A stretch of DNA of 64,000 nucleotides from a virus. Lineage: Duplodnaviria > Heunggongvirae > Uroviricota > Caudoviricetes. The notes under the pieces were generated by a model, which did no database searches, was not told the origin of the DNA, and saw only the letters and a program-made list of their open reading frames with translations. A program made the translations under genes and the position numbers. Location: the IMG/VR virus record IMGVR_UViG_3300045988_147305, one strand, 5' to 3'. Below, piece by piece: positions 1,478-2,906 of the stretch (positions are counted from its first letter, which is position 1; every line of letters begins with the position of its first letter).

Positions 1478-1952
1478 GCGTTTTTTTCAGGGTTTTCGTC
1501 ATGGTTAGCGACTTTGCGGCGGTTTAGAAACTGACCATTAAAGTAAATGCAAACGATGATCTGATGATGGTAGCGGCCTAAGAAGCCAGACGCCACGGGG
1601 TATGAGTCGTCCCCCGTCAAAAAATCGACCGCAGAGTGTCCCCGTCTGTGTATTAGGGAACGGGGAGGCACAACAGGTAAGGGCGCTGGTGTGATTAACC
1701 AGATGAACGAGAAGGGGCCATCTGTTGGTCAGCGTCCTTTCCTGTTGCGTCTTCTTTTCAGCGTAACAGCGGTGCTTAACAGCACTTTGGGTACAGTTCC
1801 ACGAATTTACGGGTATATCCCGTCATGCTGAAGGCGCTAATCACGCTGGAAGCCAGGGTTATGCATCCCCTGTTACCGAATTGCAGCCAGGGCGCGGTGC
1901 GCCGAAAAGCATACGGAGGTGGAAGCCCTCGCCGGAGACGTACCCGGCAAGT

Positions 1953-2028
1953 GATGGTGTAGCTCAGCGGTTAGAGCGGTTGACTGTTAATCAACGGGTC
2001 GATGGTTCAAATCCATCCACCATCGCCA
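1953..2028 (+). tRNA. trnA: tRNA-Asn (anticodon GTT)
   Basis: Cloverleaf folded by hand: acceptor GATGGTG/CACCATC, anticodon loop CTGTTAA, T-loop TTCAAAT, encoded CCA. Confidence 0.85.
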
Positions 2029-2030
2029 AT

Positions 2031-2106
2031 GCCGGTTTAGCTCAGTTGGTAGAGCGCCTGCCTTGTAAGCAGGATGTCAGCGGTTCGAGTCCGTTAATCG
2101 GCACCA
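2031..2106 (+). tRNA. trnT: tRNA-Thr (anticodon TGT)
   Basis: Acceptor GCCGGTT/AATCGGC, anticodon loop CTTGTAA, T-loop TTCGAGT, encoded CCA; 2 nt after tRNA-Asn. Confidence 0.85.
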
Positions 2107-2906
2107 GCACAACAGGTAAGGGTATTTTGCGACGTCGGAGATCGCCGAGCTTGGCAGAGGGTTCGAATCCCTACGAAGTACCCTTACCGTTGTGATGAAT
2201 GCGCAGGCTGATGCGCGAAAGACATTGCAGCTATTGCGGAAAAGAGCTGTTCGGCGGGGCAATTAAACGCCCGTGAGAGTCTGAAATAACCGCAAGCCGG
2301 AGATCAGCACCGGTCATCACAACACAACAGGTAAGGGCATTCTCCCTTATGGGGCTTGGCTTAAATGCATCGAGTGCTCTTACCGTTGTGATGAAGTGCA
2401 GCTCTTTGAAGCAACCAGAAGATAAGCATCTGGCTTCACAACATAAACCGCAGGAACGACCAATAAACGGTAGTCCGTATGGAGAACACCCCGTTGAGGA
2501 AGAGGCCTGGCCGGAACCGTAACCGGCACTACAACGTTGAGAACACTGGCGTAACGGGGTCATATCCCAATCTACGAATAAATGTTGCGTTGCAGCGTGA
2601 CAACCAGTGTTCTCAACATTGTGGTGAATGCACAGGCTGATGTGCCGCAACTACAGTAGTGCGCGCTTTGCGGGGCTTGCTACAACCCTGTGTCGGAGTT
2701 CAGCACCGACCATCACAGTTTGATTCTCTGGCATGAGCATAACGCTGAAATAAGTCCAGCCTGGTGCGGCCCGATCACCCGCCGTTAGCTCCACGAAACG
2801 GAGCACGTAACAGGTAAGAGCATTCTCCTGTAACGGGTTCATATCCCAATCTACAGGTCCACCAAGAATGCTCTTTCCGTTGCGGTGAATGCGGCTAAGC
2901 GCACGC
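2107..2906. repeat. Array of four related imperfect-palindrome (hairpin) elements of ~90-215 bp; a fifth related copy lies upstream at ~1669-1952
   Basis: Units share left flank CAYCACAAC(AGGTAAG) and its inverted complement (CTTACC)GTTGYGRTGAAKGC at the right; variable interiors; conserved 22-mer ACGGGKTCATATCCCAATCTAC at 2554-2575 and 2833-2854. Confidence 0.6.

Follow-up and report, generated by a model that had tools for sequence, protein, structure and literature searches.

Alternating hairpin and tRNA-shaped modules on the tRNA strand of a P1-like phage

The module region

The DNA considered here is a 64,000-nucleotide (nt) window (the whole stretch analysed, IMG/VR virus record IMGVR_UViG_3300045988_147305) from a P1-like phage (Punavirus), and the subject is a region of it, positions 1666-3003 on the + strand, in which two kinds of structured module alternate: long hairpins (H) and tRNA-shaped domains (S). 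Read in the direction of the tRNA genes, whose strand it shares, the region runs H0, S0, tRNA-Asn, tRNA-Thr, H1, S1, H2, S2, linker, H3, S3, linker, H4, S4 (Table 1). Positions 1250-3100 are 98-99% identical to vB_EcoM-813R1 and RCS47; the same segment is 97.6% identical to P1, with 86% of its length covered. P1 annotation places the modules within the C1-controlled ban operon, where the + strand order is the end of dmt, Pban/Op72, a dicF-like leader, tRNA-Asn, tRNA-Thr, tRNA-Ile(CAT) and ban. A promoter scan of 1200-4500 found no σ70-like promoter, so that the modules are most simply parts of the Pban transcript; their transcription within the ban operon is what the P1 annotation would imply.

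A preliminary description of this DNA, made from its letters without database searches, had recognised a family of covarying hairpins beside the tRNA genes. The family is real and comprises the five long hairpins of Table 1. Its division into units needed revision, however: the third and fourth units as then drawn (2437-2646 and 2690-2906) each run from the end of one module through a linker and a hairpin into the start of the following one. Comparison with relatives and other phages gives alternation of H and S as the better parse. The downstream gene that had been taken for plp encodes an SPFH lipoprotein and is not P1 plp. The array had also been thought absent from P1; alignment shows that the P1 reference carries it without one 196-nt period (window 2200-2395).

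Table 1. Positions in the window of the modules, tRNA genes and flanking elements
Feature	Position	Strand	Basis and remarks
Pban promoters and C1 operator Op72 (start of ban operon)	1252-1297	+	Homology to P1 NC_005856 features at L001 1503-1548
dicF-like leader, intrinsic terminator at its end	1340-1487	+	P1 'dicF-like region' annotation; terminator scan
Conserved non-coding module upstream of H0, terminal small hairpin just before CACAAC	1491-1665	+	Homology
H0, long hairpin, 23-nt arms	1666-1752	+	Inverted repeat; fold -48.8 kcal/mol, z -5.8
S0, degenerate S module	1744-1952	+	Read from sequence; compared with S modules elsewhere
tRNA-Asn (GUU)	1953-2028	+	ARAGORN; Rfam tRNA 74.5 bits
tRNA-Thr (UGU)	2031-2106	+	ARAGORN, Rfam; CCA end, then G, then H1
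H1, long hairpin	2108-2194	+	Inverted repeat; fold compared with shuffles
S1, tRNA-like module of type S-a	2189-2323	+	Lambdoid phage homology; covariation
H2, long hairpin, short insert	2323-2390	+	Inverted repeat; fold; covariance model R1 27.8 bits
S2, short S module (58 nt), hairpin CCAGA-AGAUAAGCA-UCUGG	2385-2442	+	Recurs in SPN9CC, Sasha and pJN2-26
Linker, terminal hairpin CCGG-AACCGUAA-CCGG before H3	2443-2526	+	Hairpin type recurs upstream of H modules
H3, long hairpin, 23-nt arms	2527-2626	+	Inverted repeat; fold z -5.5
S3, type S-a	2618-2719	+	Loop-loop pairing GCUGA/UCAGC
Linker, terminal hairpin CUCC-ACGAAAC-GGAG before H4	2720-2805	+	Sequence recurs directly 5' of H modules in IMG/VR contigs
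H4, long hairpin	2806-2884	+	Inverted and direct repeats; fold
S4, type S-b (STnc100-like)	2879-3009	+	Rfam STnc100 37.8 bits, below gathering score
tRNA-Met/Ile(CAT)	4107-4182	+	ARAGORN, Rfam

The H modules

All five H hairpins fold better than shuffled sequence (z -3.7 to -5.8; 0/200 shuffles each). The consensus stem is ~20 base pairs (bp) long, CACAAC-A-GGUAAGAGCAUUG / CAGUGCUCUUUCC-GUUGUG, and surrounds a hypervariable insert. A wider sample of 76 distinct H units, out of at least 120 IMG/VR contigs, shows an outer stem that is nearly constant from base to apex (6 bp of CACAAC/GUUGUG, a bulged A, GG/CC, a U.U mismatch, AAGRGCA/UGCYCUU and a U.G wobble). The constancy extends to the imperfections: among the units listed the bulged A is present in 65/76, the U.U mismatch in 57/76 and the U.G wobble in 56/76. 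The inserts, 22-238 nt long, fall into 45 unrelated sequence families among these units. Within the window the motif ACAACAGGTAAGRG occurs four times, each time in the array (0.43 occurrences expected; 0/100 shuffles reach four), and GTTGYGRTGAAT likewise has four occurrences in the array, with two matches elsewhere at one mismatch. A miniature inverted-repeat transposable element, the end of an insertion sequence or a repetitive extragenic palindrome, each raised as a possibility when the repeats were first noticed, would be expected in nearly identical copies, interior included, scattered in the genome in either orientation; it does not match this pattern of 45 unrelated interiors, fixed orientation and motifs confined to 1666-3003.

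Covariation of the H stem was assessed on a set anchored only on the 3'-arm motif CCGTTGTGGTGAAT, the 5' arm and the inner 3' arm being left free. (Arm-based alignments were used instead of the covariance model R1 of the H arms, which is unable to span long inserts and recovered only H2.) In this set 94.2% of the cells are paired, and nine of the 19 pairs vary on both sides (0/500 shuffles); pairing is 36-60% when the register is slid. The covariation that had been read from the long stems of this one phage is thus borne out by its inverted repeats and by the anchored set. H3 illustrates it: its stem is divergent yet fully compensated (GUUGAGAACACUGG / CCAGUGUUCUCAAC), with a C.A mismatch in place of the bulged A of the other H modules. 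Non-Watson-Crick pairs are distributed unevenly, with 79 G.U against 10 A.C (23 against 10 when the conserved wobble is subtracted), and this excess is the pattern of an RNA read from the + strand rather than of DNA hairpins.

The inserts are enriched in hairpins that resemble the T arm of tRNA (14/76 units, compared with a shuffle mean of 0.96; 7/45 insert families). One of them, GGGUUCGAAUCCC at 2159-2171, lies in the insert of H1, where a T-loop-like GGGTTCGAATCCC had been pointed out before; neither ARAGORN nor Rfam calls a tRNA there. The inserts of H3 (2551-2575) and H4 (2830-2854) have in common the 25-nt motif GUAACGGGKUCAUAUCCCAAUCUAC. (A related sequence, ACGGGCUCAUAACCCAAUCCA, is found in a hairpin of phage mEp460, at about 2722-2745 of locus L005.) The terminator scan called no H hairpin as a + strand intrinsic terminator: a run of six U follows only the long-range closing stem of S4 (2879-2887/2995-3003, then six T at 3004-3009). 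RNase III acts on double-stranded RNA of some 20 bp and upwards, a length that the H stem reaches.

The S modules and their likeness to tRNA

An S module has as its 5' end the last six bases of the 3' arm of an H module. The layout is a 9-bp closing stem (GUUGUGGUG/CACCACAAC), GAAU, a 5' hairpin of 5 bp, a variable middle part and, directly against the closing strand, a GC 3' hairpin. In S1 the closing stem is 2189-2197/2315-2323, the 5' hairpin 2201-2216 and the 3' hairpin 2296-2314, and the loops of the two hairpins (GCUGAU and AUCAGC) are complementary; the corresponding parts of S3 are 2618-2626/2711-2719, 2630-2645 and 2692-2710. S1 is 95-98% identical in lambdoid phages. The degenerate S0 retains the 3' hairpin, GCCGG-AGACGUAC-CCGGC, directly 5' of tRNA-Asn.

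In the S-a set 97.2% of the cells are paired, and 11 of 24 pairs vary on both sides (0/500 shuffles). The two small stem-loops first singled out for compensatory change, GCGCA-GGCTGA-TGCGC (2201-2216) and GCACA-GGCTGA-TGTGC (2630-2645), hold up as such and are two of a larger number of variants of the 5' hairpin, which in other phages include UCGCA/UGCGA, ACGCA/UGCGU and CGUA/UACG. The loop-loop helix covaries as well, with 96.7% of cells paired and three of its five pairs varying on both sides; at least four pairs can form in 81/81 S-a units, mostly five or six. Compensated variants of this helix have arisen independently, GUCGA/UCGAC at four loci and ACUGA/UCAGU in P7, and D6 has a G.U intermediate.

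How these parts relate to those of a tRNA is seen in the S-c subtype, in which the same closing stem encloses AGCUC-AAUGGC-GAGCU (D-arm-like, with GG in its loop) and GCCGG-UUCGAUU-CCGGC (a canonical T arm). Since these D- and T-arm sequences occupy the positions of the two hairpins of other S modules, the order and spacing of an S module correspond to acceptor stem, D arm, large insert, T arm and acceptor strand. An acceptor-like stem, D-like and T-like hairpins in tRNA order and an elbow contact are all found, and in S-a Watson-Crick pairs appear to stand in place of the D-loop/T-loop contact. The resemblance is one of architecture and not of family membership. ARAGORN called only the three tRNAs in the window, and it rejected all 14 S modules submitted to it, also when introns were permitted and ACCA was appended; Rfam tRNA (RF00005) has no match on S-c. 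The original guess of tRNA-like or processing elements fits the layout of the S modules.

H and S modules share sequence in a way that sets them in competition. The six bases GUUGUG can pair with the 5' arm of H or with the 3' strand of S, and these pairings are mutually exclusive. In constrained folds the alternatives differ by 2.4-5 kcal/mol, S closure being favoured for H1-S1 and H4-S4 and the full H for H3-S3. In H4/S4 the six bases read GUUGCG, and each partner carries the compensating change (CGUAAC and CACCGCAGC); it seems from this that both pairings are maintained. S modules follow H modules in the wider sample too: the S start motif follows 55 of 82 distinct H units, and the closing complement is found within 330 nt in 47 of the 82 (12/116 in the shuffled control).

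That these are neutral debris, decaying tRNA pseudogenes and duplicated spacers without function, is a reading for which one could cite the T-arm-like fragments in H1 and in 7/45 insert families, the degeneracy of S0 and the variation of module content between close relatives. Debris would not be expected to show compensatory changes that preserve three helices and a loop-loop contact, frames conserved across unrelated phage groups and present in 845 Escherichia coli genomes, or a maintained Watson-Crick loop-loop contact, which is not a feature of ordinary tRNAs; this reading is very improbable. The earlier proposal that selection acts on secondary structure, and that the repeats are not decayed coding sequence, is supported by the covariation of H and S alike.

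Minus-strand open reading frames

Two open reading frames (ORFs) run through the modules on the minus strand, one plp-like (2231-2650) and one upl-like (2651-2980). Both are annotated in P1 (L001 2324-2893) and in RCS47, and the ORFs, these annotations and PHROG matches of the upl-like ORF are what speaks for a region that encodes minus-strand proteins Plp and Upl, the repeats being a coincidence at the level of codons. The plp-like ORF has neither a Pfam nor a PHROG match; the upl-like ORF has no Pfam match, and the PHROGs that it matches are themselves derived only from annotations of this kind. In P1, plp shares 30 nt with trnT, which is on the other strand. The module differences that distinguish P1, P7 and SJ46 (196, 215 and 254 nt), none of them a multiple of 3, disrupt the ORFs; the annotators of P7 and D6 made no such calls; and conservation tracks RNA helices. 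A coding explanation of the region is scarcely credible on this evidence, and plp and upl are probably spurious genes, antisense to RNA modules.

Exchange of modules between phages

P1, P7, SJ46, D6 and Ro157c2 differ from one another by whole modules, and all of the breakpoints lie within conserved frames. In addition to the period missing from P1, P7 is without window 2127-2341, SJ46 has H3 and H4 fused at their common 25-nt insert motif, and Ro157c2 has a 162-nt insertion at the linker 2443-2526 and an additional tRNA-Tyr. Across IMG/VR contigs one and the same H insert is joined to differing S types. Modular exchange between phages is evident from these sequence comparisons.

An 87-nt class-II tRNA-Ser(UGA)-like gene lies between S and H in D6 (L004 3606-3693), P7 (L006 ~3303-3390) and pJN2-26 (L010 ~1577-1662). 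Its match to Rfam tRNA-Sec, of 43 bits, does not reach the gathering score, and the gene is unannotated in P7 and pJN2-26.

Exchange on this scale raises the question whether the inverted repeats are DNA recombination sites, folded or duplex, comparable with integron attC or with lambdoid 'boundary sequences', for swapping tRNA genes and other small cassettes. Whole-module insertions and deletions with breakpoints in conserved segments, the free recombination of H inserts with S types and the presence of tRNA genes (Tyr, Ser-like) in slots between modules of some P1-like phages would all be accommodated by such sites. The H layout is itself attC-like: AAC...GTT boxes at the ends, one extrahelical base and an apical part that varies; its position between small cassettes is a further likeness. 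The sequences depart from the attC consensus RYYYAAC/GTTRRRY, ACACAAC carrying an A where the consensus calls for Y and GTTGTGG a T where it calls for R. Strand asymmetry is a further objection: G.U is far more frequent than A.C, and read from the opposite strand the conserved U.G would become a C.A mismatch. The loop-loop covariation of S has no DNA rationale, and the orientation of modules always follows transcription. An integrase is not noted among the neighbouring ORFs that were clustered (Q, holin and others), no integrase search having been made; nor is a common recombinase evident from the phage types and neighbouring ORFs examined (P1-like, lambdoid, P22-like, Sasha-like and Ackermannviridae), in which no systematic search was made. 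Ordinary homologous recombination at conserved frames of 20-40 nt suffices for the shuffling. Dedicated DNA exchange sites are, on balance, quite improbable. Of the two possibilities first offered, structured RNA or hairpin-recognised DNA sites, it is RNA on the tRNA strand, rather than DNA hairpins, that the G.U excess, the loop-loop covariation and the common orientation point to.

Distribution and genomic setting

Modules of this family occur in P1-like phages and phage-plasmids, in lambdoid, P22-like and Sasha-like phages, and in lytic Klebsiella phages (Ackermannviridae). Of 5,426 complete E. coli genomes, 845 have S1, and none of the RefSeq matches listed has an annotated feature at it. 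The commonest setting is immediately beyond the tR' terminator that follows a Q antiterminator gene, on the same strand (at least 36 loci); a P22-type holin gene follows ~360 nt downstream of the modules, also on the same strand, in at least 17 loci. Association with tRNA genes is equally strand-specific: among the IMG/VR matches listed, 86 tRNAs within 1.5 kb of H units are on the same strand and none on the opposite one, and at least 12 tRNA 3' ends at IMG/VR loci abut an H module. The arrangement in pJN2-26 is tRNA-Asn, H, S2, tRNA-Ser-like, H, and in the Klebsiella Ackermannviridae phages the modules lie in a 2.6-kb non-coding tRNA region. Sasha-like siphoviruses have an S2-type module between structural genes. 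In P22-like SPN9CC the S2 module is just upstream of an N-like gene and has a compensated closing stem (GAUGCGAUG/CAUCGCAUC). Lambdoid phages without an annotated N gene (mEp460, Stx2a_WGPS2) carry modules in the PL leader, which is non-coding for ~700-780 nt. The K-12 cryptic prophages DLP12 and Qin have no H or S motifs. A scan of a genome collection with the 14-mer CCGTTGTGGTGAAT gave at least 120 matches, essentially those of chance, and a stricter motif a single chance-like match and no convincing H/S locus.

The two PL leaders (L014 5165-5944, minus strand; L005 2110-2830) contain a 5'-truncated H, a copy of S1 and a further H-like hairpin.

The settings just listed lend themselves to another explanation, that the modules act in cis on transcription in leaders, as antiterminator RNAs, Rho-blocking fillers or attenuators that allow polymerase to reach ban or the late genes. 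Modules directly after tR' and downstream of Q genes, in PL leaders where no N gene is annotated and, in a P22-like phage, close before an N-like gene are where such control might be looked for; those of the window lie between Pban and ban, downstream of the intrinsic terminator at 1461-1487, and their mutually exclusive, nearly isoenergetic stems resemble a switch. Set against this, the modules are downstream of terminators and not upstream of them, they form tandem arrays and occur inside the tRNA clusters of lytic Klebsiella phages, and a role in transcription control leaves the hypervariable inserts unexplained. The STnc100 and PasD relatives discussed below accumulate as discrete small RNAs (sRNAs). 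S motif regular expressions have no match in immunity-region segments of HK022 (22000-33500), in which the put sites themselves were neither located nor aligned. A function in transcription control is judged unlikely.

Flanking elements

The Pban/Op72 region includes a palindrome at 1263-1300 (inverted-repeat scan). The strong intrinsic terminator of the dicF-like leader, which lies between Pban and the tRNA genes and ban, consists of a stem at 1461-1480 and a T run. Rfam DicF has no match in window 1340-1487; this P1 'dicF-like region' is 82% identical to the ydfC-dicF spacer of K-12 Qin, and not to DicF itself. Downstream of it, window 1491-1601 is homologous to IMG/VR locus L029 (83%) and to the non-coding tRNA region of UPM2146, a Klebsiella phage of the Ackermannviridae (73%). 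On the far side of the array, window 3035-4079 contains a membrane ORF of 78 amino acids and the SPFH/Band-7 lipoprotein gene, at the place where P1 has tciA-tciB-tciC. In mEp460 and Stx2a_WGPS2 the PL leader opens with ~180 nt that are ~79% identical to the leader between tRNA-Ile(CAT) and ban (4184-4368), which is, to judge from this similarity, another shared non-coding leader module.

Relation to known RNAs

The search with Infernal and Rfam that had been suggested as a check was run and returned the tRNAs and a sub-threshold match to STnc100 (RF02076) at S4. This is the only non-tRNA Rfam match of note (37.8 bits, E 6e-6, model positions 31-147), and the counterparts of S4 in P1, D6 and Ro157c2 score 33-40 bits with the same model. 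H, S1, S2 and S3 match no family of Rfam 15, and no ribozyme or riboswitch family matches at E up to 10. In Stx2a_WGPS2 a full STnc100 match (153.8 bits) lies 75 nt downstream of stx2B and has the same architecture as the S modules. PasD is a prophage sRNA, validated on Northern blots, whose stability depends on Hfq (PMC8550237); STnc100 has been linked to it structurally (bioRxiv 10.64898/2026.05.13.724894), and STnc100 RNA has been detected by reverse-transcription quantitative PCR (PMC12370729). S4 is, judged by its match to the model, a diverged relative of these Hfq-associated prophage sRNAs. S1, S3 and S4 have in common with STnc100 and PasD a closing stem of 7-9 bp, GAAU, a 5-bp hairpin, a variable middle and an abutting GC hairpin, and the phage setting is the same. 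The differences are that S4 is without model positions 1-30 and the 3' terminator module, and that the modules of the array sit with tRNAs and H hairpins in an operon and are not stand-alone genes.

Other systems resemble the array in part. The tRNA cluster of phage T4, with rnaC and rnaD, is a case in which phage tRNAs are co-transcribed with stable RNAs that are not tRNAs and mature through host tRNA-processing enzymes; T4 is not known to have H-type hairpins. The nearest parallel to the way in which the array might operate is found in the TMERs of murine gammaherpesvirus 68, in which a viral tRNA-like element is directly followed by pre-miRNA hairpins: a tRNA-processing enzyme separates the parts and a double-stranded RNA nuclease then processes the hairpin (RNA polymerase III, tRNase Z and Dicer being the enzymes concerned). 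That system is eukaryotic and there is no homology, and processing in the phage array is only proposed. In YrlA, a bacterial Y RNA (RF02553), a long stem is joined to a tRNA-like domain with its own T arm; it differs in that stem and tRNA-like part are one molecule, and no Rsr/Ro gene context was noted at H/S loci. The Rfam YrlA model matches only true tRNAs (25.6 bits) and no H or S module. The H stem is comparable with the RNase III stems of T7 early sites and of the rRNA operon, as an imperfect stem of ~20 bp in a polycistronic phage transcript, and there is no sequence similarity. For RNase P there is a precedent in P1 and P7 themselves, whose C4 RNA it matures. Two candidates were set aside: the M3 RNA of phi80, an RNase P substrate considered as a counterpart of S2, is annotated as an oop homologue and has a different place in the genome, and HnrS is an unrelated sRNA of 66 nt.

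A proposed processing scaffold with exchangeable payloads

The modules are very probably structured RNAs under selection, formed on the tRNA strand. The best explanation of the whole, which we favour by a modest balance, is that they form a string of RNA modules co-transcribed with the tRNAs in the C1-repressed ban operon, with conserved frames that direct processing around variable payloads. The specific mechanism is more tentative. Host RNases would cut the polycistronic precursor at the H and S frames, RNase P at the 5' ends of tRNAs and S domains (the 9-bp S closing stem that abuts a 5-bp hairpin would offer the coaxial, acceptor/T-arm-like helix of an RNase P substrate) and RNase III inside the H stems. 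Both tRNAs and stable small RNAs would be set free in this way, with the conserved frames serving as scaffolds for processing and stability and the variable inserts as payload, perhaps sRNA seeds or tRNA-like fragments. Since the basal stem of H and the closing stem of S vie for one GUUGUG, folding may be sequential, with H forming first and S following upon cleavage or branch migration. The frames probably double as points of homologous recombination at which modules are shuffled between phages. The nucleases and the function of the payloads are what we infer here; our literature search found no paper on P1 ban-operon transcripts.

Several observations weigh against this interpretation or limit it. 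The outer stem of H is conserved in sequence and does not covary, as might equally be seen in a site bound by a sequence-specific protein or in sequences lately spread by horizontal transfer. The H and S-a covariation sets are subject to ascertainment bias (the search pattern held one arm constant, and only units with complementary arms were kept), and many sequences of the covariation alignments are related by descent. The loop-loop contact is not universal: one S-a variant (L080) is without it, another (L046) has only four pairs, and no convincing loop-loop pairing is found in the S-b subtype. S modules are not scored as tRNA by ARAGORN or Rfam and have no encoded CCA. The STnc100 score of S4 is below the gathering score of 47, and S1-S3 give no Rfam STnc100 match at E up to 10. 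The roles of RNase P and RNase III at the array are themselves only proposed.

A bolder view, possible and at present doubtful, is that this is a natural 'RNA cassette' system of enterobacterial phages, in which frames recognised by RNase III and RNase P would carry exchangeable, rapidly evolving payloads and serve as recombination joints for trading payloads and tRNA genes, STnc100 and PasD being domesticated single members. Payload tRNA-like fragments could on that view be decoys for tRNA-targeting defences.

Significance for phage small RNAs

In P1 the array is nothing new: the reference contains it in mis-annotated form, and one of its modules is near a known sRNA family. We found no description, in Rfam 15 or in the literature searched, of the H element, of a tRNA-like S scaffold with a covarying loop-loop contact, of the grammar that joins H, S and tRNAs or of the breadth of the family. 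The modules are largely unannotated, and the features called at them in P1 and RCS47 are hypothetical minus-strand proteins; P1 plp and upl become doubtful genes. Many lambdoid prophages have related frames where the late operon begins, and others occur in PL leaders and within the tRNA clusters of lytic Klebsiella phages. A single family with a tRNA-like scaffold places STnc100 and PasD in a structural and evolutionary context, and it opens the question of how phages mature and diversify small RNAs beside their tRNAs, with a possible tie to host defence or takeover.

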